A stretch of DNA of 64,000 bases, taken from contig NC_086097.1 in NCBI RefSeq assembly GCF_963921235.1, positions 111,354,001 through 111,418,000 on the forward strand, written 5' to 3'. The DNA is from Mobula hypostoma (Eukaryota). Both the position numbers and the translations under genes were made by a program. Each line of letters opens with the position of its first letter. Positions within the stretch are counted from its first letter, which is position 1. Below the pieces are notes generated by a model. That model did no database searches and was not told the DNA's origin. It saw nothing but the letters and a program-made list of their open reading frames with translations. This document shows positions 5,410-64,000 of this stretch, one piece after another.

Positions 5410-6125
5410 TAAACACGAGATTCTGCAGATCCTGGAAATCTTGAGCAACGCACAAAGTTTTGGAGGAACTCTGCAAGTCATGCAGCATTTATGGAGGGGA
5501 ATATACTGTTGATGTTTTGGGCTGAAAACCTCCATCAGGACTGGAAAAGAAGGAGCAGAAGCCAAAATAAGGTAGGGCGAGAGGAAGGAGTACAAGCTAG
5601 AAGAGGAAAGTAGGGGGTGGGAGAGAGGGATGTAGTGAGAAGCTGGAGGGTGATAGGTAGAATAGGTAAGAGGTAAGGAAGAAGAAGGAATGTCACTATC
5701 CTCCACTAATAGATTCCTTCCTCTTCAGCCCTTTATGTCTTCCATCTATCACCATTCAACTTCTGACTTCATCTCCCCTCCCTAACCCACCCACCTTCCC
5801 CCTCACCTAGTCTAATGTATTATCTGACAGTGTGTACTCCTTCCCCTCCTCCAACTTATTCTTGCTTTTCCCCCCTTCTTTTCCAGTTCTGATGAGGGGA
5901 TGTTGGCCCGAAACAGTGACTGTTTATTCTCCTCCATTGATATTGCATGACTTGCTGAGTTCCTCTAGCATCTTGTGTCTGTAAACAACAGGAATTCTGC
6001 AGATGCTGGAAATTCAAGCAACACACATCAAAGTTGCTGGTGAACGCAGCAGGCCAAACAGCATCTCTAGGAAGAGGTACAGTCAACGTTTCAGGCCGAG
6101 ACCCTGACTAGTCCTGACGAAGGGC
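5410..6125. mobile_element. Cluster of Penelope-like terminal repeats in alternating orientation
   Basis: Minus copy ~5410-5690, plus copy ~5695-5980 (hammerhead-like motif 5884-5922), second minus copy ~5983-6105. Confidence 0.75.
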
Positions 6126-6129
6126 CTCT

Positions 6130-6809: not shown

Positions 6810-9050
6810 AAATTTCAAGAGGATCTGAAGTGTATGTCTGGCATATTCTAAAAGCAAGATGACACAACCAAGGGAAGTCAAAGCCAACATAAAAGCCAAG
6901 AGAGGGCATGCAATAGAAAATTAGTAGGAAGTGAGAGGATTGGGAAGCTTTCAAAAACCAACAGAAGGCAACTAAAAAAAGTTATTAAGAAGGTAAAAAT
7001 GGAAAACAAAAGTAAGTGAGCCAATAATGTTAAAGAGGATACCAAAAGTTTCTTCAGATACATAATGGGTAAAAGAGAGGCGAGAGTGGATATCGAACCA
7101 CTGGAAAACAATCCTGGAGAGGTAGTAATGAGAGGGACAAGGAAATGGCGGACGAACTGAACAATTATTTTGCATCAGTGTTCATTTTGGAAGCCACTAG
7201 CTGTTCCAGGTATCAGGGGTCATGAAGTGTGCGAAGCTACCATTACTAGAGAAAAGGTTCTTGGGAAACTGAAAGATACAATAGACAATAGGTGCAGAAG
7301 TAGACCATTCAGCTCTTAGAGCCTGCACCGCCATTCTGAGACCATGGCTGATCATCTACTATCAATACGCGGTTCCTGCCTTGTCCCCATAACCTTTGAT
7401 TCCCCTATCCATAAGATACCTATCTAGCCCCTTCTTGAAAGCATCCAGAGAATTGGCCTCCACTGCCTTCTGAGGCAGCGCGTTCCACACCTCCACAACT
7501 CTCTGGGAGAAGAAGTTCCTCCTCAACCCTGTCCTAAATGACCTACCCCTTATTCTTAAACCATGCCCTCTGGTACTGGACTCTCCCAGCATCTGGAACA
7601 TATTTCCTGCCTCTATCTTGTCCAATCCCTTAATAATCTTATATGTCTCAATCAGATCCCCCCTCAATCTCCTTAATTCCAGCGTGTACAAGCCCAGTCT
7701 CTCTAACCTGTCTGCGTAAGACAGTCCGGACATCCCAGGAATAAACCTAGTGAACCTACGCTGCACCTCCTCCACAGCCATGATGACCTTCCTTAACCCT
7801 GGAGACCCAAACTGCACACAATACTCCAGGTGTGGTCTCACCAGGGCTCTGTACAAATGCAAAAGGATTTCCTTGCTCTTGTACTCCATTCCCTTTGTAA
7901 TAAAGGCCAACATTCCATTAGCCTTCTTCACTGCCTGCTGCACTTGCTCATTCACCTTCAGAGACTGATGAACAAGTACTCCCAGATCTCTTTGTATTTC
8001 TCCCTTACCTAACTCCACACTGTTCAGATAATAATCTGCCTTCCTGTTCTTGCTCCCAAAGTGAATAACCTCACACTTATTCACATTAAACACCATCTGC
8101 CAAGTTTCTGCCCACTCACCCAGCCTATCCAAGTCACCTTGAATTCTCCTAACATCCTCATCACATGTCACACTGCCACCCAGCTTAGTATCATCAGCAA
8201 ACTTGCTGATGTTATTCACAATGCCTTCATCTAAATCATTGACGTAAATCGTAAACAGCTGTGGTATGAAGGTAAATAGGTCACTTGAACCAAAAGATGT
8301 ACACCCCAGGGTTCTGAAGGGGGTGGCTGAAGAGATTATGGAGGCATTAGTAATGATCTTTCAAGAATCACTAGAATTTGGAATGGTTCTGGTAGAGTGG
8401 AAAATTGCAAATGCCACTCCGCTCTTCAAGAAGGAAAAGGCAGAAAAAATTATAGGCCAGTTAGCTTGACTTCAGTGGCTGGGAAGTTGTTGGAGTCAAT
8501 TATTAAGGATGAGGTCTCAGGGTACTTGGAGGCACATGATGAAACAGTAGTTTGAAAATCTTGCCTGACAAAGCTGTTGGAAATCTTTGAAGAAATAACA
8601 GGTAGGATAGACAAAGGATAATCAGTTGATGTTGAGTACTTGGATTTTCAGAAGGCCTTTGACAAGGTGACACACATGAGGCTGCTTAGCAAGCTACAAG
8701 CCCATGGTATTACAAGAAAGATTCTAACATGGAAAATACAGTGGCTGATTGGCAGGAGGCAAAGAGTGGGAATAAAGGGAACTTTTTCTGGTTGGCTGCT
8801 GGTAACTAGTGGTGTTCCACAGGTGTCTGTTTCGAGACCGATTCTTTTTACATTAGTGTCAATCATTTGGATGATGGCTTTATTGCAAAGCTTACAATAT
8901 GAAAATAGGTGAAGGGACAGGTAGTTTTGAGGAAGCAGGGAGGCTGCAGAAGGACTTAGATTAGGAGAACGGGCAAAGAAATGGCAGAGGAAATGCAGTG
9001 TTGGGAAGTGTATGGTCTTGCAGTTTGGTAAAATAAATAAAAGGGTTAAA
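6810..9050 (+). mobile_element. Older CR1 ORF2 fragment (host of the 7275-8265 insertion)
   Basis: HPRVLK..AEEI, DFQKAFDKV.H.RLL and VTSGVPQ motifs with stops and frameshifts. Confidence 0.8.
7275..8265 (-). mobile_element. Young 5'-truncated CR1 LINE with an open RT C-terminus (ORF 7362..8219), nested in an older + strand CR1
   Basis: SKFADDTKLGG, RPHLEYCVQF, LRGDLIETYKI with no stops over 285 aa; short (ctattgt)-type tail. The host CR1 resumes at ~8263. Confidence 0.9.
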
Positions 9051-12521: not shown

Positions 12522-12673
12522 ATACACACAAAATGCTGGAGGAACTCAGCAGGCCTGGCAGCATTTACGGAAAAGAGTACAGTTGATGTTTTGGGCTGAG
12601 ACCCAAAGCAGGACTCCTCCAGCATTTTGTGTGTGTTGTTTGGATTTCCTGCAACTGCAGATTTTCTCTTGTT
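12522..12673. repeat. Inverted pair of Penelope-like ends
   Basis: acacacaaaatgctggagga ... tcctccagcattttgtgtgt. Confidence 0.75.
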
Positions 12674-14154: not shown

Positions 14155-14403
14155 ATAAACACAAGAGATCCTACAGATGCTGGAAATCCAGAGTAACATA
14201 CACAGAATGGTGGCAGAACCCAGCAGGACAGGCAGCCTGTATGGAAACGAGGGGGGGAAGAAGCTAAAATAAGAAGGTGGGGCCCTCTTATTCTGACATT
14301 TTTCTGCAGTCCTGATGAAGGGTCTTGAGCTGAAATGACAACTGTTTATTCATTTCTGTAGATGCTGCTTGACCTACTGAACTCCTCTAGCATTTTGTGT
14401 GTT
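14155..14403. repeat. Inverted pair of Penelope-like ends
   Basis: Minus end followed by a plus end containing cagtcctgatgaagggtcttgagctgaaa (14307-14335). Confidence 0.7.
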
Positions 14404-35264: not shown

Positions 35265-36574
35265 CTCACACAAAATGCCGGAGGAGCTCAACAAGTCAGG
35301 CAGTATCAATGGAAATGAATAAACAGTAAACATTTGGGCCAAGACCCTTCATCAGGACTGGAAAGGAAGGGGGAAGAAGTCAGAATAAGGTGGTGGGGAA
35401 AGGGGAGGGAGTACAAGCTAGAAGGTGATGAATTCAGAATCTGGGAGGTGACTGGAGAAGAAGGAATCTGACAGGAGAGGAGAATAGACCATGGGTGAAA
35501 AGGAAGAGAGGGGCAGCACCAGAGGGAGGTGATAGGCAAGAGAAAAAAAGAGGGGGGGGGGGAGGGAGAGAGAAATGAAGAAGGGAATGGGGAGTTGGAA
35601 GAATTACCAGAAGTTGGAGAAATCAATGTTCTGCCACTAGGTTGGAGGTTACCCAGACAGAATGAGGTACTGCTCCTCCAACCTGAGAATGGGTAGAGGC
35701 AGCAATGGACTGACATGTTGAAATGCAAATAGGGATTGGAATTAAAATAGTTGGCCACGGGGAAATATTGCTCTTTGCAGAGGGAGTAAAGATGCTCGAC
35801 AAAAGAGTCCCTCAATCCATGTTGGGCCTCACCAATGTAGTACAGGCCGCATTGGGAGTACCCAGTACAGTAGACGATCCCACCAGATTCACCAGTGAAG
35901 TTTTGTTTCACCTGGAAGGACTGACTGGGGCCCTGAATGGAGGTGAGGAAGGAGGTGAACGGGCAGGTGTAGCACTTTTTGCACTTGCTGGGTTAAGTGC
36001 CAAGAGGGAGATGAAGGGAGATTAGGGGGGTGGAACAAATTGACAAGGGAATCGCAGAAGAAGCAGGAAGTGGAGAGTAGTGGGGAAGAAAGAATGATAG
36101 GCCGGATCGCAGAGGTTCATGGGATGGTAGGTGAGAACAAGAAGAACTCTATCCCTATTAATGTGGCAGGAAGATGGGGCAAGGCCAGATGTCTGAGAAA
36201 TGGAGATGTGGGTGAGGGCAGCATCAATGATGGAGGAAGGAGAAACCATTCTTCAAAGGAGGACATATCTGATACCCTGAAAAGAAAAGCCTCATCCTGG
36301 GAACAAATGCAACAAAGACAAAGCAACTGAGAAAAGGGTGGGAAGTGGTATAGTCAGATAGTCATGGAAGTTGGTAGGTTTGTAAAAGAGATCAGTACAT
36401 GGTTTGTCACCAGAGATGGAGACAGATTACATTGATAACAGCAGTGCTGTTTCAGGCACCCGTGCTGAGCTCACCAGTTTCATAAACTTTGCCTCCAGCT
36501 TCCACCCTGCCCTTAAATTCACTCGGTCCATTTCTGACATCTCTCTCCATTTTCTCTATCTCTGTCTCCATCTC
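35265..36574 (-). mobile_element. Penelope-like element, 5'-truncated with an inverted 5' segment
   Basis: GIY-YIG-like GIVYC..SQCGLYYIGEA...EH (ORF 35306..35911). The RT piece YIDN...FINFASSFHPALKFT lies on + at 36427-36574. Confidence 0.85.
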
Positions 36575-37621: not shown

Positions 37622-37697
37622 TTTGAATACTAAATTTGGGACGGAGTAAATTGATTGGGTTAAAATTCCCGAAAGAAAGAAAAGGCAAACAGCAGAA

Positions 37698-39803
37698 ATG
37701 GAGATTGAGGAATTTCTAAAGGTGCTGACCTTGGAGGCATTAGAGGATGCCAGGAAAGCGGAATTGGCAGCTGTGGCCAAACGATTGAACCTTGTTAAGG
37801 GGAAGTCGACAATGAGGAGAGAGGAGATGCACAGAGCTATCATAGAGCACTATGTATCTAAAGGTGTGTTTCCCCAAGGGGAGCTGGAGGTGGTGCAGAT
37901 TGAAAAACTGAGACTCGAGCACGAGTTCCGGGTACGGCAGCTAGAACACGAAGAGAAGCAGTTAGAAAGGCAGGAGAAAGAGAAAGAGAGGCAGTTGGAG
38001 CGAGAAGAGAGGCAGAGGGAAAGGGAATTTGAGCTGGAGAAGTTAAAGATGATGGCAGAGCAGGGGCCTATGCTGAACCAAGGTGGAGGGTTCAAGGCGA
38101 CCCAGGAGGTTAGGCTGGTTCCCCCATTTGACGATACCGATGTGGATCGGTACTTTCTCCATTTCGAAAAAGTTGCTACAAGTCAGGACTGGCCGAGGGA
38201 TAAGTGGGCTGTTTTGCTTCAGAGTGTACTTAAAGGAAAAGCCCAACAAGCTTACTCAGCTTTGTCCGCGGAAAATGTCCAGAGGTATGAGGTGGTGAAA
38301 GAGGCCATCCTCAGGATTTATGAGTTGGTCCCGGAGGCATACCGGCAGAGGTTCCAGAATGAGAGGAAGCAGTGGGACCGCACGTATTTAGAGTTTGCCC
38401 GTGAGATGCAGACATATTGTGAGCGTTGGTGCGCCTTGAAGGGGGTAGATGGGGATTATGACAGACTGCTACAGCTGATCCTGATTGAGCAGTTTAAAGG
38501 TTGTGTCCCTGAGGGTATGAGACCCTACCTAGATGAGAAAGAGGCAGCCACGTTAGCCGCAACTGCTAAGTTAGCGGATGAGTACACGTTGACGCATAGA
38601 ATGAAGTTTGTCCCGAGTAAAGGCCACCAGAAGGGTAGTCAGGACGGTGGGGAGAGTCCGCCAGAGAAGTCAGAAAATAAGCCAGGGACTAGTGAGAAGG
38701 ATAAGGTAGACCGGGAGCAGTCTGGTAGGAAGTCTCCTGGGGTCGTCTGTTATAATTGTGGGAAAGTCGGACACTTTGCGTCCAGGTGCTTTGCCCCAAA
38801 GAAGGAGACGGGGAAAGGAAAAACGGCGATTTTGACTGGCTGTATCGAGCTGGTAAACGAACTGCTAGGAGAGGAAAGGTCTGCCAAAGTTCAGGAAGGG
38901 CGCAAGAGGTTTATCTCGGCCGGATTGGTGTCGATGAAGGAGGGGTTAAACCCAGTTCCAGTGCGGATCTGGAGAGACACGGGAGCGTGTCAGTCATTGA
39001 TATTGAAGAGTGTATTAGAGTTCAGCTCAGAGACCCAGACTGGGGAGGTCAAAGTCAAAGGTATTGGGGAAGGGACAGAGGCAGTCCCTTTGCACCAGAT
39101 ACACCTACAAAGCAACTTGGTCTCTGGACCAGTCACGATCGGGGTGAGGCCCGAATTACCGATAAAAGGCGTGGAAGTCTTGCTCGGTAATGACCTCGCT
39201 GGAGGAATTGTGTTCTCGACAGTGAGATTGACAGGTCAGCCTGCCAGCATTGAGGCCCCGCCCACGGACTCACAGGTTCATCCTGGGACTGCCGAAGTAA
39301 ATTTAGCTGAGACGTTTCTACCAGCCTTGTACCAGGGGGAAGTAGAAAGTGAAAAGAAGGAGTGTAGTGAAACAAGAGGTAGTGAGGGAGCTGAAACCGA
39401 CTTAGCATTAGAAAAGAAGGACTTTATACAGGCGCAGGAGCGAGACGAGGAAACAGCTCGCTGTGAAACAGAGTTAGGAAGAGAACCAGTAGGCTATGGT
39501 GTGAAGGGGGAGGTGATAAGGAAGGAAGGGAGACCAAGTACCACAGATAAGGAATGGGGGATGGTGCCAAAAATCTCTTGGGGTGAGATTTTTAACCTGG
39601 CCCACAAGGTACCCCTCGGTGGACATTTTGAGGTGCTGAAGGAAACAGTTGGCGGAATCATGAAAGAGGTTTACTGGCTGCACAGGAGGAAGGATGTTAT
39701 TGATTATGGCAGACGCGAACTGAGACGGTCTCAGGCTTTTGATATGCTAACAAACCTAGTCGGTGTTAGCGCGGAAATCAACGAAGCTAGGGTCCCCCGA
39801 TGA
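37698..39803 (+). CDS. Gag (coiled coil, SCAN/capsid-like region, CCHC knuckle), aspartic protease and truncated integrase N-terminus; 701 aa
   Basis: Uninterrupted ORF. Motifs: VPPFDDTDVDRYFLHFEKVA..W..W; YELVPEAYRQRF; CYNCGKVGHFASRC; protease RDTGACQSL...LLGNDL; integrase-like LAHKVPLGGH...YW..RKDV with the two Cys absent. Confidence 0.9.
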   Translation: MEIEEFLKVLTLEALEDARKAELAAVAKRLNLVKGKSTMRREEMHRAIIEHYVSKGVFPQGELEVVQIEKLRLEHEFRVRQLEHEEKQLERQEKEKERQLEREERQREREFELEKLKMMAEQGPMLNQGGGFKATQEVRLVPPFDDTDVDRYFLHFEKVATSQDWPRDKWAVLLQSVLKGKAQQAYSALSAENVQRYEVVKEAILRIYELVPEAYRQRFQNERKQWDRTYLEFAREMQTYCERWCALKGVDGDYDRLLQLILIEQFKGCVPEGMRPYLDEKEAATLAATAKLADEYTLTHRMKFVPSKGHQKGSQDGGESPPEKSENKPGTSEKDKVDREQSGRKSPGVVCYNCGKVGHFASRCFAPKKETGKGKTAILTGCIELVNELLGEERSAKVQEGRKRFISAGLVSMKEGLNPVPVRIWRDTGACQSLILKSVLEFSSETQTGEVKVKGIGEGTEAVPLHQIHLQSNLVSGPVTIGVRPELPIKGVEVLLGNDLAGGIVFSTVRLTGQPASIEAPPTDSQVHPGTAEVNLAETFLPALYQGEVESEKKECSETRGSEGAETDLALEKKDFIQAQERDEETARCETELGREPVGYGVKGEVIRKEGRPSTTDKEWGMVPKISWGEIFNLAHKVPLGGHFEVLKETVGGIMKEVYWLHRRKDVIDYGRRELRRSQAFDMLTNLVGVSAEINEARVPR

Positions 39804-44504: not shown

Positions 44505-47500
44505 AATAATAGACAATAGGTTCAGGAGTAGGCCATTCAGCCCTTTGAGTCAGCACCGCCATTCACTGTGATCATGGCTGATCATCCACCATCAGTATCC
44601 AGTTCCTGCCTTATCCCCATATCTCTTGACTCTGCTATCTTTAAGAGCTCTATCTAATTCTTTCTTGAAAGCACCCAGAGAATTGGCCTCCATTGCCTTC
44701 TGAGGCAGAGCATTCCACAGATCCACAACTCTGTGTGTGAAAAAGTTTTTCCTCAACTCCGTTCTAAATGGCCTGTGCCTTATTCTTAAACTGTGGCCTC
44801 TGGTTCTGGACTACCCCAACATTGGGAACATGTTTCCTGCCTCGAGCATGTCCAATCCCCATCTTATATGTTTCAATCAGATCCCCTCTCATCCTTCTAA
44901 ATTCCAGTGTATACAAGTCCAGTTGCTCCAATCTTTCAACATATGACAGTCCCACCATCCCGGGAATTAACCTCGTGAACCTACGCTGCACTCCCTCAAT
45001 AGCAAGAATGTCCTTCCTCAAATATGGAGACCAAAACTGCACACAATACTCCAGATGTGGTTTCACCAGGGCCCTGTACAGCTGCAGAAGGACCTCTTTG
45101 CTCCAATACTCAACTCCCCTTGTTATGATAGCCAACATGCCATTAGCTTTCTTCACTGCCTGCTGTACCTGCATGCTTACTTTCAGTGACTGATGAACAA
45201 GGACACCTAGATCTTGTTGTACTTCCCCTTTTCCTAACTTGACACCATTCAGATAGTAATCTGCCTTCCTGTTCTTGCCACTAAAGTGGATAACCTCACA
45301 TTTATCCACATTAAACTGCATCTGCCCACTCACCCAACCTGCCCAAGTCACCCTGCATTCTCATAACACCCTCCTCACATTTCACATTGCCACCCAGCTT
45401 TGAGTCATCTGCAAATTTGCTAATTGTTACATGCTCAAGGAGATGTGTTTTTTTTTGTGAGAATGATGTAATGGTCTTTTGGAGGTCACCTGATGTGATT
45501 TTCCCGCCAATGTGAGGTCACGGGATGACATGCCCCGTGACTGTACAAGGGTTGACCCAGGTGACGCAGTTAGTTTTTTTTGAGTTTGTAGATTTCCAGG
45601 TAGAACGTGTTGTGCCTCCGTTTCTGCTGCATCTGTTTTTTGTGACGCAGTTTCATTTTTAAAACGGTTGTACGTTCTGTTGAAAGTTTCCATATTACTT
45701 GGACTGGAAATTTGCGGCTGGAAGTGCCAATTTACTCAATTCTGACATTTGAAGGGAGTGTGAAGAATTCATCGAAGGATCGAGAGAAGTCGGCATCGTT
45801 TGGCAGTTTAATAAAGAATCGACCTTATTGAGTCTTCGTTGGAGAGAACCTGCATTGAGATAACTCTTGCAAAAGGGCAATGAGTTCATGCAAACAGGTG
45901 CCCTCTCTCTAAAGGAATTTAAGGTCAGTTGATTTAAACTGTTTATTTTCGGCATCGGGAATCCCATGGACAGAACCAGCAGTAAAAGTGCATCGGTGAA
46001 GAAATCTTTCTCCAGACAAGTCTCTCCCAATTGAATGTGTAAAACTGTTGGACTTTCGAAGTTATCACTTTAAGAACTATATCTGACTGTATCGCTTTAA
46101 GATCTGTTTTCGCATTTAACGCTTTAAGAACCAGAGCCGAGTGGTGAGTTGGTGAACAACTGCATACCTGTAAAACTCCGGTTAAAGTTTTCCTTTGTTT
46201 TTTTTTCCCTTATCGTTTATACGTGTTTAATAAATGTTTGGTTGTTTTTATATAACCTGTCTTGATTAATATTCATTGTTGCTGGTTACGTAACATATTA
46301 CTTTTAATCCCTTTATCTAAATCATTAATGTATATTGTAAATAGCTGCGGTCCCAGCACTGAGCCTTGCGGTACCCCACTAGTCACTGCCTGCCATTCTG
46401 AAAGGGACCCGTTAGTCCCTACTCTCTGTTTCCTGTCTGCCAACCAATTTTCTATCCACATCAGTACCCAACCATCAATACCATGTGCTCCAATTTTGCC
46501 CACTAATCTCCCCTGTGGGACCTTATCAAAGGCTTTCTGAAAGTCCAGGTACACTACATCCACTGGCTCTCCCTTGTCCATTTTCATAGTTACATCCTCA
46601 AAAAATTCCAGGAGATTAGTCAAGCATGATTTCCCCTTTGTAAATCTATGCTGACTTGGACCGATCCTGTTACTGCTATCCAAATGTGCCGCTATTTCAT
46701 CTTTTATAATTGACTCCAGCATCTTCCCCACCACTGGTGTCAGGCGAACTGGTCTATAATTCCCTGTTTTCTCTCTCCCTCCTTTCTTAAAAAGCAGGAT
46801 AACATTAGCTACCCTCCAATCCACAGGAACTAATCCTGAATCTATAGAACATTGGAAAATGATGACCAATACATCATCGGGCCCTGGGGATTTATCAGCC
46901 TTCAGTCCCATCAGTCTATCCAACACCATTTTCTGCCTAATGTGAATTTGTTCAGTTACTCCGTTACCCTAGGTCCTCTGGTCACTATTACATCTGGGAG
47001 CTTGCTTGTGTCTTCCCTAGTGAAGACAGATCCAAAGTACCGGTTCAACTCGTCTGCCACTTCTTTGTTCCCCATAGTAAATTCACCCGTTTCTGTCTTC
47101 AAAGACCCAACTTTGGTCTTAGCTAACTTTTTTCCTCTTCACATACCTAAAGAAGCTTTTACAACCCTCCTTTATATTCTTGGCTAGCTTACCTCATCTT
47201 TTCTTCCTGTAATGCCTTTTTAGTTATCTTCTGTTGCTCTTCAGAAGTTTCCCAGTCCTCTGGCTTCCCACTCATCTTTGCTATGTTATACTTTTATTTT
47301 TATACTGTCCTTGACTTCCCTTGTCATCCACGGTCGCCCCTTACTTCCCTTAGAATCTTTCTTCCTCTTTGGAATGAACTGATCCTGCACCTGCTGTATT
47401 ATTCCCAGAAATACCTGCCATTGTTGTTCCACTGTCATCCCCGCTAGGGTATCTTTCCAGTCAACTTTGGCCAGCTCCTCCCTCATGGCTTCATAGTCCC

Positions 47501-54433: not shown

Positions 54434-55411
54434 TCAAGTCAAGTCAAGTCACTTTTTATTGTCATTTCGACCATAACTGCTGATACAGTACACAGTAAAA
54501 ACGAGACAATGTTTTTCAGGACCATGGTGCTACATGAAACAATACAAAAACTACACTGAACTATGTAAAAACAACACAAAAACTACACTAGGACTGCATA
54601 AGGTGCACAAAACAGTGCAGGCATTACAAAAAATAATAAACAAGACAATATGCACAGTAGAGGGCAGTAGGTTGGTGTCAGTCCAAGCTCTGGGTATTGA
54701 GGAGTCTGATGGCTTGGGGGAAGAAACTGTTACATAGTCTGGTTGTGAGAGCCCGAATACTCGGTGCCTTTTGCCAGATGGCAGGAGGGAGAAAAGTTTG
54801 TATGAGGGGTGCATGGGGTCCTTCATAATGCTGTTTGCTTTGTGGATGCAGCGTGTGGTGTAAATGTCAGTGACGGCGGGAAGAAAGACCTCGATGATCT
54901 TCTCAGCTGACCTCACTATCTGCTGCAGGGTCTTGCAATCTGAGATGCTGCAATATCCGAATCCGAACCAGGCAGTGATGCAGCTGCTCAGGATGCTCTC
55001 AATACAACCTCTGTTGAATGTGGTGAGGTTGGGGGGTGGGAGATGGACTTTCCTCAGCCTTCGCAGAAAGTAGAGACGCTGCTGGGCCTTCTTTGCTATG
55101 GAGCTGGTGTTGAGGGACCAGGTGAGATTCTCTGCCAGGTGAACACCAAGAAATTTGGTGCTCTTAACGATCTCTACGGAGGAGTCGTTGATGTTCAGCG
55201 GAGAGTGGTCGTTCCGTGTCCTCCTGAAGTCAACAACCATCTCTTTTGTTTTGTTCACATTCAGAGACAGGTTGTTGACTCTGCACCAGTCTATTAGCCG
55301 CAGCACCTCCTCTCTGTATGCTGACTCATCGTTCTTGCTGATGAGACCCACCACGGTCGTGTCATCGGCAAACTTGATGATGTGGTTCGAGCTGTGTGTT
55401 GCAGCACAGTC
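54434..55411 (-). mobile_element. Young Rex1/Babar-like LINE, 5'-truncated, inserted in a CR1
   Basis: HIIKFADDTTVVGLISKNDESAYREEV...AQQRLYFLRRLRK; (cttga)n tail at ~54434-54450. Confidence 0.88.
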
Positions 55412-55791
55412 GGTAACCAGTGGTGTGCAACAGGGATCAGTGTTGGGCCCACTGTTGTTTGTCATCTATGTTAGTAATTTGATTGATAGTGTAGGTGGCA
55501 TGGTTACCAAGTTTGCAGATGACACCAATATTGGAGGCGTTGTGGACAGTCAAGGTGACTTTCTAAGATTACAATAGGATCTATAAATCAGCTGAGAATG
55601 TTGCCCAAAGAATAGCATATTGAATTTAGTGTGAATACAGTTAGACAGGGGCAGAACTTACATCGTAAATGGCAGCGCTCTGAAGACACAGAACAAATAA
55701 ACCTTGCACTATAAGGACACAGTTCCCTGTAAGTGATGACATTGGTCGATAGGAGGGTAAGAAGGCATATGGTAAGCTTGAGTTGATGGGG

Positions 55792-57122: not shown

Positions 57123-57530
57123 GAGCAACACACACAAATGTTGGAGGAACTCAGTAAGTCAGGTAGTATCTTTGGAGGGTAATAAATAGTCTATGTGCAA
57201 GCTGAGACCCTTCGTCAGAAGTGGAAAGGAAGGGGGCTGAACCCAGAATCAGTAAGTGGGGGAGGGGAAAGATAGGTAATAGATGAAACCAGGTGACGGG
57301 GATGATGGGTAGGTGTAGGAAGGTAAGGATGAAGACAAAGCTGGGACGGAATGGGTGAAGAAAGTAAAAGAATGAAGGAGGAATCTGACAAGAAAGGACA
57401 GCGGACCATGGAAGAAAGGGAAGGAGGGGAACCAGAAGGAGGTGAGCGCAGGTAAAGGGAAGAGAAAGGGTAACAGGAGAGCCAGAATGAGGAAACGAAA
57501 AAAAGAAAAAAAAATGACTGAAAGTTGGCC
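57123..57530 (-). mobile_element. Penelope-like 3' fragment
   Basis: acacacaaatgttggaggaactcag...gagacccttcgtcag followed by a purine-rich tract. Confidence 0.7.
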
Positions 57531-58321: not shown

Positions 58322-58407
58322 CTGAACACAAAGTGAAAGAACAAATTTAGTGTCTTCAACTGGTGACTAAACCCATGGGAAAAAAAACGTCCACCAGACA
58401 TACTTAC

Positions 58408-59669: not shown

Positions 59670-59778
59670 CTGAGTTTAGTAGTGTTGATCAGGTAAAGTT
59701 TAGTTTGGTACTGCACCAATGCCCACTGAGGATTCACACAACCTATAAATACATGATTCTGTAACATATCTTGGAGGC
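59670..59778 (-). CDS. MLH1: MLH1 exon 14 equivalent (109 bp)
   Basis: AG/GT bounded. Translates [35 protein letters not shown]. Confidence 0.96.
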
Positions 59779-60691
59779 CTTAAAAATAAAAGACTCAGAG
59801 TTAGTATCTGCAACACAATGATAATATCTCCTTACATTGTCAAGGTGCATACCACGTGATTGTATCTGACATGTATTAGTTTCACAACACAAGTACAAAC
59901 AAATCATTCTAAATTCTTAGTAGCTGATTCATGACCCAAGCCCTGAATTTCTTGGCATCAATCTTGACTGTTCCTTCTGATCCCAGAAATCAATAACATT
60001 TATAAAATTATGATAGACAGCTGGCATTTCTCCCCACCCCCAACACTCCCCTCACCACTAGTCAAAATGTCTAATACTACTGGGCATGAATTTAAGGCAA
60101 GAGGGGGAAGTTCAAAGATGATGTGCGGGGCAAGTTATGTTTCTCTCCCTCACAAGCTAAGTGGCAGGTATATGTAATGCAATGCCTGGTGTTGGAGACA
60201 AATACAATAGAGGCATTTCAGTAGGCCGAAGGGCCCATCCCTATCCTATACTGATTTATATTCTAATATTTAGGAAATAAAATGCAACAATAGAAGTAGA
60301 AAAACCTCACTGGCAGATAGTGAGAATCTGAAGAAATTGCTGGTAAAGTGTAGATCACTGTGACACTGAATGCTTCAGATCAGTAAATCTCTCTCTCAAT
60401 GAATGTCCATTGCCTGTTTTGTATTTCCAGTGGAAAAATGAAAGGGCAAGGTGTGGAGCACATGCTCACACACTGACCATCTGCAGTCAATCTCTACTTT
60501 CACAGAATATTGTACCTAGACATGAACGAGTTATCTCCACAACAACTCAATGGTGATGTTTTATGTCCTGATCTTATGCTCCATTCCACTCCCTTGTCAA
60601 CCCATGCCCATAAGACTAAGTGTAAAGCTGCTTTCTGTCATTTAGCACATATTTCTAAAGGCCCATCAATCAACAGAAAAATACAATTCTC

Positions 60692-61303
60692 TAACAACAG
60701 GAATACTGCAGATGCTGGAAATTCAAGCAACACACATCAAAGTTGCTGGTGAATGCAGCAGGCCAGGCAGCATCTCTAGGAAGAGGTACAGTCGACGTTT
60801 CAGGCCGAGACCCTTCGTCAGGACGAACTGGAGGAAGAGTTAGTAAGAGATTTGAAAGTGGGAGGGGGAGGGGGAGCTCCAAAATGATAGGAGAAGACAG
60901 GAGGGGGAGGGATGGAGCCAAGAGCTGGACAGGTGATTGGCAAAAGTGATATGAGAGGATCATGGGACAGGAGGTCTGGGGAGAAAGACAAGGGGAGGGA
61001 GGGGGAACCAGAGGATGGGCAAGGGGTATAGTCAGAGGGACAGAGGGAGAAAAAGGAGAGTGAGAGAAAGAATGTGTGTATAAAGATAAATAACGGATGG
61101 GATACGAGGGGGAGGTGGGGCATTAGCGGAAGTTAAGAGAAGTCAATGTTCATGCCATGAAGTTGGAGGCTACCCAGACAGAATATAAGGTGTTGTTCCT
61201 CCAACCTGAGTGTGGCTTCATCTTTACAGTAAAGGAGGCCATGGATAGACATGTCAGAATGGGAATGGGATGTGGAATTAAAATGTGTGGTCACTGGGAG
61301 ATC
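60692..61303 (-). mobile_element. Younger Penelope-like 3' fragment
   Basis: CpG-retaining terminal repeat with the hammerhead motif, purine tract and endonuclease C-terminus. Confidence 0.85.
60789..60830 (-). ncRNA. Minimal type I hammerhead ribozyme motif in a Penelope-like terminal repeat (best-preserved copy)
   Basis: Minus strand reads GUC-CUGACGA-AGGGUCUCGGCCU-GAAAC-GUC^GAC: core CUGANGA/GAAA, stem II, palindromic ACGU in place of stem III, GUC cleavage triplet, GUC/GAC stem I. Confidence 0.8.
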
Positions 61304-61429
61304 CACTGGGAATACAATTCTCTTCCCATTCTTCCTTATGGAATACTGAACTTATGGCCTCAGGCTCCTTCTCACAGTCAATTTAATGCTATAAATTTGT
61401 TGACAACACAACTATTTTTGACAGAATTT

Positions 61430-62215: not shown

Positions 62216-62534
62216 TCTTCTCAGACAAATTTATGAAGTAAAAACAACTTTGATTTGCAACATGATGAACTATCAAGTAGTTTCTGAAAAGCATCAGCCT
62301 GTGTGGAGGTTCAAATGTGATACATCACAATCCCTTGTGAAAATAGGGATATTCTGTCATTTGTCAATGATATACACAAAATGCAGGAGGAACTCAGCAT
62401 GTCAGGCAGCATCTATGGTAAAGAATAAAGAGTCAATGTTTCAGGCTGAGACCCCAATGATGGGTTGAATACACGTGATATTAGCACACAACTTGTGTTT
62501 CTCCTTAAGAAAAAGACTCATCTAATAGCTGTAC

Positions 62535-62683
62535 CTGTATGGTTTTGACTGTTGATGTCCTCCCGCAAAGAGAGTATACTGGTAAGGTTAATAATTCGCC
62601 TCTTTGGAAGATGAGCAGCTGTCATATTATGACTGGAGTTCATTTCCTTTTCTTCATCTGGCAATTCGGCCCTTGATCGTTTT
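62535..62683 (-). CDS. MLH1: MLH1 exon 13 equivalent (149 bp)
   Basis: AG/GT bounded on -. Translates KRSRAELPDEEKEMNSSHNMTAAHLPKRRIINLTSILSLREDINSQNHT, containing the RRIINLTS motif. Confidence 0.93.
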
Positions 62684-63647: not shown

Positions 63648-64000
63648 CATTTGAAAGTGGGAGGGGGAGGGGGAGATCCAAAATGATAGGAGAAGACAGG
63701 AGGGGGAAGGGATGGATCTAAGAGCTGGAGAAGGGAGAAGATAATCGGACGGGAAGCCTGGGGAGAAAGAGAAGTGGGGAGGGGAGCCCAGAGGGTGGAG
63801 AGCAGGCAAGGAGTTATAGTGAGAGGGACAGAGGGAGAAAAAAGAGAGAGAGAGAAAAAAAAGGGGGAAAAGAATAAAAAATATATAAGATAAATAAATA
63901 AGGGATGGGGTGTGAAGGGGAGGAGGCACATTAACAGAAGTTAGAGAAGTCATCAGCCATCAGGTTGGAGGCTACCCAGACGGAATATAAGGTGGTGTTC
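63648..64000 (-). mobile_element. Penelope-like fragment of the same subfamily as 60692-61303, running off the window
   Basis: tttgaaagtgggagggggagggg...ggttggaggctacccagac, matching 60850-61200. Confidence 0.8.

Follow-up and report, generated by a model that had tools for sequence, protein, structure and literature searches.

A minimal hammerhead motif in MLH1 intron 13 of Mobula hypostoma lies in a truncated Penelope-like insertion and is probably a neutral passenger

The window analysed here is a 64,000-nt stretch of the Mobula hypostoma genome (NC_086097.1, positions 111,354,001 to 111,418,000 of the forward strand). Within intron 13 of MLH1, on the sense strand of the gene, it carries a minimal type I hammerhead ribozyme motif at the 3′ end of a 612-bp insertion. 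The insertion is a 5′-truncated copy of a Penelope-like retroelement. Our analysis makes it highly probable that this copy is a neutral passenger, predicted to misfold and spliced out with the intron uncut, and its hammerhead is likely to be in MLH1 by chance. The features are listed in Table 1.

Table 1. Features of the hammerhead motif, its host intron, the insertion and related copies (window coordinates)
Feature	Position	Strand	Basis or remark
Minimal type I hammerhead motif	60789..60830	minus	sequence read; stem II register from folding
Stem I, 3 bp	arms GUC 60824-60822 and GAC 60793-60791	minus	
Core C3-A9, CUGACGA	60821-60815	minus	
Extra A, bulged	60814	minus	
Stem II	60813-60802	minus	
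GAAA	60801-60798	minus	
ACGU palindrome without loop	60798-60795	minus	
C17; scissile bond	60794; 60794/60793	minus	
MLH1 exon 13, 149 nt	62535..62683	minus	translation, splice sites, contigs
MLH1 exon 14, 109 nt	59670..59778	minus	Mlh1_C positions 19-56; contig-joined to exon 13
5′-truncated young Penelope-like copy, 612 bp	60693..61304	minus	92-96% identity to genomic copies
C-terminal GIY-YIG endonuclease remnant	61130..61291	minus	one stop in frame
Target-site duplication, 13 bp, upstream copy	61311..61323	minus	
Target-site duplication, 13 bp, downstream copy	60680..60692	minus	
Decayed relative, intron 13	62395..62454	minus	without CUGANGA half; ACAU for ACGU
Decayed relative, intron 16	57124..57218	minus	GAAAC half destroyed
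Decayed relative, between exons 17 and 19	35323..35358	minus	G12 and palindrome lost

A first-pass annotation of the window had claimed a full set of hammerhead core letters on the minus strand from 60830 to 60789, a loop-less palindromic ACGU in place of stem III and a short stem I. Direct reading of the sequence confirmed all three. The CUGANGA ... GAAA ... UH core of the minimal hammerhead (min-HHR) is present, loop 3 is missing and the palindromic 15.1-16.1 position permits a dimer. The unpaired base between positions 9 and 10.1 is A60814; all 43 young copies of the family and 98 of the 104 old ones have an A here. The core, the loop-less ACGU and this extra A bear out the minimal type I architecture that had been proposed. 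A relaxed hammerhead core pattern matched the window once and matched none of 100 dinucleotide shuffles. The Rfam scan suggested as a check, for example with Hammerhead_1, did not pick up the motif, giving no hammerhead match over the whole window at gathering scores, nor any within 60500-61100 at E≤10. Rfam matches to UnaL2 and PrrB_RsmZ, both far below gathering scores, were rejected as chance. We also rejected a retrozyme-type tandem repeat, since no tandem array spans the motif.

Two features set the MLH1 copy apart from a typical min-HHR. On folding, stem II is better with A60814 bulged (GGGU/GCCU with a CUCG loop) than in an AGG/CCU register, and the G60812-C60803 pair of the bulged register has a probability of 0.60 in the 48-nt fold. 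The pair at 10.1-11.1 is therefore a G·U wobble (G60813·U60802) instead of G-C, which is highly conserved in the min-HHR consensus although it lies outside the published search pattern (Cervera and De la Pena 2014, PMC4209133). Of the 43 young copies in the family, 13 have G-C at this position and 28 have G·U; of the 104 old ones, 47 have G-C. The second feature is stem I, in which 3 bp are followed by a C·U; helix I has 4-5 bp in the Schistosoma families of that paper, and 5 bp, the last of them U·G, in the majority of our family. It is the C at 60825 that leaves stem I with 3 bp in place of 5 bp, a variant shared by 1,164 of 45,139 exact genomic matches (2.6%). Judged by these letters, the MLH1-intron hammerhead reads as a weakened variant descended from the min-HHR type. 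The variant letter sits in the 5′ (enzyme) arm, and the substrate arm (GUC/GACUG) is undamaged and can form 5 bp with the majority enzyme arm of the family. The MLH1 copy would thus be a poor enzyme but an intact substrate for majority-type partners.

The Penelope origin suggested for the motif was corroborated by the boundaries of the insertion, its 13-bp target-site duplication and longer copies elsewhere in the genome that carry reverse transcriptase (RT) and GIY-YIG domains. The 612-bp insert comprises the end of the endonuclease ORF and the 3′ repeat (pLTR) with the hammerhead and a tail. It departs from the majority of genomic copies at 18 of 612 columns, the comparison copies having been chosen as best matches. 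Its GIY-YIG remnant is identical at 36 of 39 residues to the ORF of one genomic copy (L163), which matches PF01541 GIY-YIG above the cut-off. Related copies continue upstream of the insert into RT and GIY-YIG ORFs, and in the longer copies the RT lies upstream of a C-terminal GIY-YIG in one ORF. The longest frame among 11 extended loci is an uninterrupted RT-linker-GIY-YIG frame of 672 aa with DKG and RT motifs (L165:4076-6091, plus strand), and the insert is 94% identical to this locus over 612 nt. The RVT_1 match in the L165 ORF is below the cut-off (E 0.002); Pfam scores the RT and GIY-YIG domains of longer family copies weakly.

The translations of the longer copies, read by eye, contain a CCHH motif with two cysteines between GIY and YIG (L160, L163, L165, L168 and L169) and a C-X4-C-X2-C linker between RT and endonuclease (EN; L160, L163, L165, L167, L168 and L169), with one cysteine altered in L166. 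In the account of Craig et al. (2021, PMC8557442), a CX2-5CxxC linker between RT and EN occurs in Neptune and Nematis and is absent from Penelope/Poseidon, and a CCHH arrangement of this kind is a Neptune-type feature. The linker and CCHH features point to an EN+ Penelope-like element of Neptune or Nematis type as the source family and would exclude Penelope/Poseidon. Other hallmarks of such elements were also found in the family, namely 5′ truncation, inverted pLTR partners, a one-sided tail and a target-site duplication of variable length. Inverted partners cover the ribozyme end at 11 of 29 other loci and stop ~30-60 nt short of the direct copy; an inverted pLTR partner that ends short of the tail is a known footprint of these elements. 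Compared with the Neptune and Nematis EN+ elements described by Craig et al., the MLH1 copy consists of a solitary 612-bp 3′ stub and lacks an inverted partner. Six extra bases (61310-61305) that follow the upstream copy of the target-site duplication repeat a word near the 5′ end of the element. The RT/GIY-YIG protein of the element would have reverse-transcribed element RNA from the 3′ tail, stopped after 612 nt and left the duplication.

The location in intron 13 on the MLH1 sense strand, also claimed in the first-pass annotation, is secured by Mlh1_C profile matches on the minus-strand exons, by the exon 16 peptide, which matches PDB MLH1 chains (E 2.6e-26), and by the splice sites. The gene spans ~110 kb (G000:C1:111387624-111497633), with its N-terminal exons reaching G000:C1:111497633. 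Exon numbers in the ray gene are based on the exon sizes of human MLH1 and not on a count of all upstream exons. Because the sizes of 149, 109, 64 and 165 nt match those of human exons 13-16, the label of intron 13 stands. This intron runs from 62534 to 59779 (2,756 nt), and the hammerhead lies ~1.0 kb before the acceptor. An LRRFIP-family gene on the plus strand ends just ahead of the window, and a gene of this family presumably adjoins human MLH1 as well. Intron 15 is only 86 nt long (58322-58407, minus strand) in this 110-kb gene.

The two exons on either side of the insertion are joined in contigs from presumed RNA runs, which are sequence contigs that give no strand, level or RNA ends. 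Exon 13 is joined directly to exon 14 in three of four runs (X2, X3 and X5), free of mismatches in X2 and X3. Words of the repeat family reach summed depths of 3.0e5-6.7e5 at 60643-60839, against 10-57 in exon bins, although such depth is not a measure of expression. The end of an X1 contig at 60721 was rejected as a sign of cleavage, as the contig stops at the repeat. Mammalian polymerase II is reported to move at 3.5-4.1 kb/min (PMC10919898), at which 1.0 kb to the MLH1 acceptor would take ~15-20 s. According to the same source, citing Fong 2009, slow intronic ribozymes have no effect on splicing. Partners in cis are poor, the enzyme arm is weak and the 3′ splice site follows within ~1.0 kb, a matter of seconds. 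Cleavage would accordingly be too rare and too slow to matter, and we infer that the MLH1 copy is removed with the intron uncut.

The copy number of the motif makes a chance presence in MLH1 likely. The 34-nt motif, with two degenerate positions, has 45,139 matches in the 3.48-Gb genome, and its reversed control has none; a looser core-intact pattern has 74,619. With 45,139-74,619 copies genome-wide, a sense copy in a 110-kb gene of MLH1 length is expected by chance at a probability of 0.51-0.69. A co-opted, locus-specific ribozyme was rejected on the copy number, the target-site duplication and the absence of strand bias. A ribozyme co-opted by its host would be expected in few copies and with marks of selection at its site; we found 45,139 copies and a recent insertion only 18 of 612 columns off the majority.

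Strand bias was sampled in 1,445,600 bases of seven other genes. Their strand was set by profile matches (TIGR01472, TIGR01578, PF21034, PF09738 and TIGR00585), and their names and broad expression are presumed. A PF20652 profile search for another long gene gave no match. Sense and antisense copies were equal in number for exact copies (14 versus 14) and for the broad pattern (19 versus 19), and were close to equal for core-intact copies (20 versus 23) and for all family matches (155 versus 153). The core-intact share in the full seven-gene sample was 20/155 sense and 23/153 antisense (P 0.62). A first, smaller sample, made up of the 138 non-MLH1 matches that cover the whole motif out of 262 matches in all, had 11/75 sense and 17/63 antisense core-intact copies (P 0.09). 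This lean to fewer intact sense copies vanished after 269,600 more bases were added, the definitions differing between the two samples. The 95% interval of the sense share is 0.31-0.69, which leaves room for depletion of up to about twofold.

Changes in the core of young copies are also similar on the two strands, at 3/210 sense and 3/220 antisense letters outside CpG and at 17/168 sense and 15/176 antisense letters in CpG. Young copies lose mainly CpG letters (32/344, versus 6/430 at other core letters). The tail region was rejected as a neutral-rate control because its 15.5% differences come from alignment and subfamily effects. The equal presence of sense and antisense copies in introns suggests that these hammerheads are close to silent in host transcripts, and this bears on the question of what role the hammerhead has in Penelope-like elements. 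The idea that MLH1 is a special target found no support, as a sense copy is expected there at P 0.51-0.69 and sense copies are not depleted elsewhere (14 versus 14). If the 308 family matches in 1.45 Mb are typical, extrapolation gives ~700,000 remnants of the repeat end genome-wide. In one sampled gene, BCAS3-like (L120-L159, L191-L193), a single pre-mRNA contains seven exact sense copies, each with a stem I of 5 bp; this gene is a better place than MLH1 for testing cleavage by cis dimers.

A hammerhead of this type would act only in pairs. Cervera and De la Pena (2014, PMC4209133) report that a single min-HHR motif is not cleaved and that dimers and trimers show low cleavage; cleavage rates of min-HHRs are described as very low even for dimers (PMC6765202). 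The first-pass annotation held that dimerisation would be needed, and this is supported. A nested double-hammerhead structure can be drawn for copies paired through ACGU. In the active element, cleavage would occur only in such a double hammerhead, in which two copies pair via ACGU and exchange their stem I arms; the element protein would probably assist, as for the anole element.

Folding predictions are unfavourable to the MLH1 copy. The minimum free energy structure of the 48-mer monomer is a long hairpin in which the core is paired with CGUC. With 60-120 nt of context the probabilities of stem I and stem II are at most 0.002 and 0.009, and both halves pair with the flanks. In an energy model that leaves out tertiary, Mg2+ and protein contributions and is uncalibrated on a known active dimer, active hammerheads, whether one-site or double, come out 12.8-14.8 kcal/mol less favourable than free monomers. 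Predicted dimer occupancy is about 1e-8 or less at 1 uM partner, even if 5 kcal/mol per junction is granted. Majority-type copies also misfold in context and are penalised almost as much as the MLH1 copy.

The MLH1 pre-mRNA had been proposed as a possible self-cleaving dimer, with same-strand relatives at ~62431, ~57187 and ~35324. These relatives exist, but none of the three has an intact core, and they make poor partners (Table 1). An older Penelope-like ORF fragment (36338-35589) has the last of them at its end. Self-cutting through a double hammerhead in cis would have to use the only other core-intact copy among 14 family matches in MLH1 (L009:2149, minus strand, ~G000:C1:111470152). This copy is on the sense strand and offers a GUU triplet. 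It lies, however, 55,328 nt upstream, is separated from the intron 13 copy by no fewer than three exons and has an A·C mismatch at 10.1-11.1. The pair gives the worst dimer score of all, at +14.6 kcal/mol. Self-cleavage of the MLH1 pre-mRNA is thus barely credible.

Cutting in trans is the other route by which the copy could matter. Family RNAs together with the element protein might, in the germ line for instance and at times when the element is active, cut the nascent MLH1 intron often enough to reduce what the gene produces. The first-pass annotation had raised cleavage by family transcripts, which the intact substrate arm, pairing over 5 bp with the majority arm, would formally allow. The substrate arm of the MLH1 copy is complementary to the majority enzyme arm, its opening costs only 3.3-4.2 kcal/mol, and ~99% of the family depth in the presumed RNA runs has the majority letter at 60825. 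Protein-assisted cleavage is known for a green anole element (Frangieh et al. 2024, PMC11167929). On the other hand, the two RNAs would be held by just 9 intermolecular bp, the predicted occupancy at 1 uM partner is 5e-9 or less with the junction bonus of 5 kcal/mol already included, and intact copies show no strand bias in the seven other genes. Nothing distinguishes MLH1 from the other targets in this genome, which are as good or better and number in the tens of thousands; the RNA-seq described for the anole element contained no reads ending at the site (PMC11167929). We consider trans-cleavage of the MLH1 intron very unlikely. A broader version, in which ~75,000 core-intact hammerheads with a shared ACGU interface would let family RNA and protein cut many host pre-mRNAs in trans and transiently lower mismatch repair, is in our judgement most improbable. 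If true, trans-cleavage of host pre-mRNA would give retroelements a novel means of influencing host genes, with MLH1 as a striking target. As a neutral passenger, the MLH1 copy is one more truncated Penelope-like copy with an already described ribozyme motif and carries little weight alone.

It may also be asked whether the hammerhead works in the source element. The motif could be a relic even there, with its core kept only through a recent burst of copying; this proposal and the neutral-passenger reading agree on MLH1 and differ only about the source element. The excess of G·U over G-C at 10.1-11.1 in young copies (28 versus 13 of 43), the 1,164 recurrences of the 3-bp stem I variant and the misfolding of majority copies in context are consistent with a relic, as is the report that ribozyme mutants still insert in vitro (PMC11167929). 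Compensatory changes were not found among dead copies of one lineage. At the first stem I pair, a 3′ A occurred in 14 of the first 100 matches starting with T and in 9 of the first 100 starting with C (P 0.38), and the retrieved sample gave 10/9 versus 36/82 (P 0.07), in both cases among dead copies of one lineage. Dead genomic copies of one lineage are a weak place for a covariation test. Against a relic, the majority core letters are the same in old and young subfamilies and the stems can still pair in both, even as the flanks diverge. A sister subfamily (including L107:644) has loop II UCCG or UCCA in place of CUCG, two letters being changed in the loop and none in the stem, which may lend weak support to the hammerhead fold; it makes up 7 of the first 100 T-start and 4 of the first 100 C-start matches listed. 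A relic in the source element is unlikely on this evidence, yet it deserves to be taken seriously.

The neutral-passenger reading agrees with what is known of related systems. Minimal hammerheads have been described in the pLTRs of metazoan Penelope-like elements, including the fish elements Xena, Poseidon and Neptune, mostly as dispersed single copies from truncated elements (Cervera and De la Pena 2014, PMC4209133). The motif in MLH1 resembles them in its core letters, the missing loop 3, the palindromic 15.2-16.2 position, the extra base between 9 and 10.1 and its place in a terminal repeat, and its family likewise occurs mostly as single dispersed copies from truncated elements. Our counts of 45,139 exact and 74,619 core-intact copies far exceed the ~4,000 and ~9,000 min-HHRs given for coelacanth and Xenopus in that paper, where the search patterns differ from ours. 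The green anole's Poseidon element PAc (Frangieh et al. 2024, PMC11167929) also has a hammerhead in a vertebrate Penelope-like pLTR. It belongs to another clade, Penelope/Poseidon, without the linker finger. Its hammerhead activity has been measured and requires the element protein, whereas the MLH1-intron copy is known from sequence and folding.

Self-cleaving motifs on the sense strand of introns are also known from the CPEB3 HDV-like ribozyme, which cleaves with a half-life of 2-3 min (PMC10919898), and from ultraconserved amniote intronic hammerheads (cited in PMC6765202 and PMC10919898). Those ribozymes are conserved across species, whereas the MLH1 copy is a recent insertion of a high-copy repeat. 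The CPEB3 ribozyme cleaves unaided; the MLH1 copy depends on a partner and bears no mark of selection. Tandem retrozymes are under-represented in Xenopus introns according to a preprint (10.64898/2026.07.22.740005), which describes cleavage in 1 of 9 elements. By analogy, this deficit may give mild support to selection against active tandem forms, of which the MLH1 copy is not one. A literature search on shark Penelope hammerheads returned no published account of this family; the supplements of PMC4209133 or of the preprint may include it or relatives.

Other repeats in the window provide context. At 5984-6128, a young minus-strand copy without the CUGANGA half stands head to head with an 18-nt plus-strand stub that bears this half, and the pair is a small inverted insertion; older inverted pairs of this kind lie at 12524-12673 and 14168-14403. 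Reverse-transcriptase fragments matching RVT_1 are found on the minus strand at 7365-8360, 46276-46968 and 54554-55465, the first of which is unrelated to the Penelope-like ORF. An open frame of 717 aa with SCAN and zinc-knuckle domains (37650-39803, plus strand) runs antisense in MLH1 between exons 17 and 19 and presumably resembles the gag region of a Gmr1-like LTR retroelement. Upstream of exon 13, an older related Penelope-like fragment (63649-64000, minus strand; 75% identity to L165) ends before the hammerhead.
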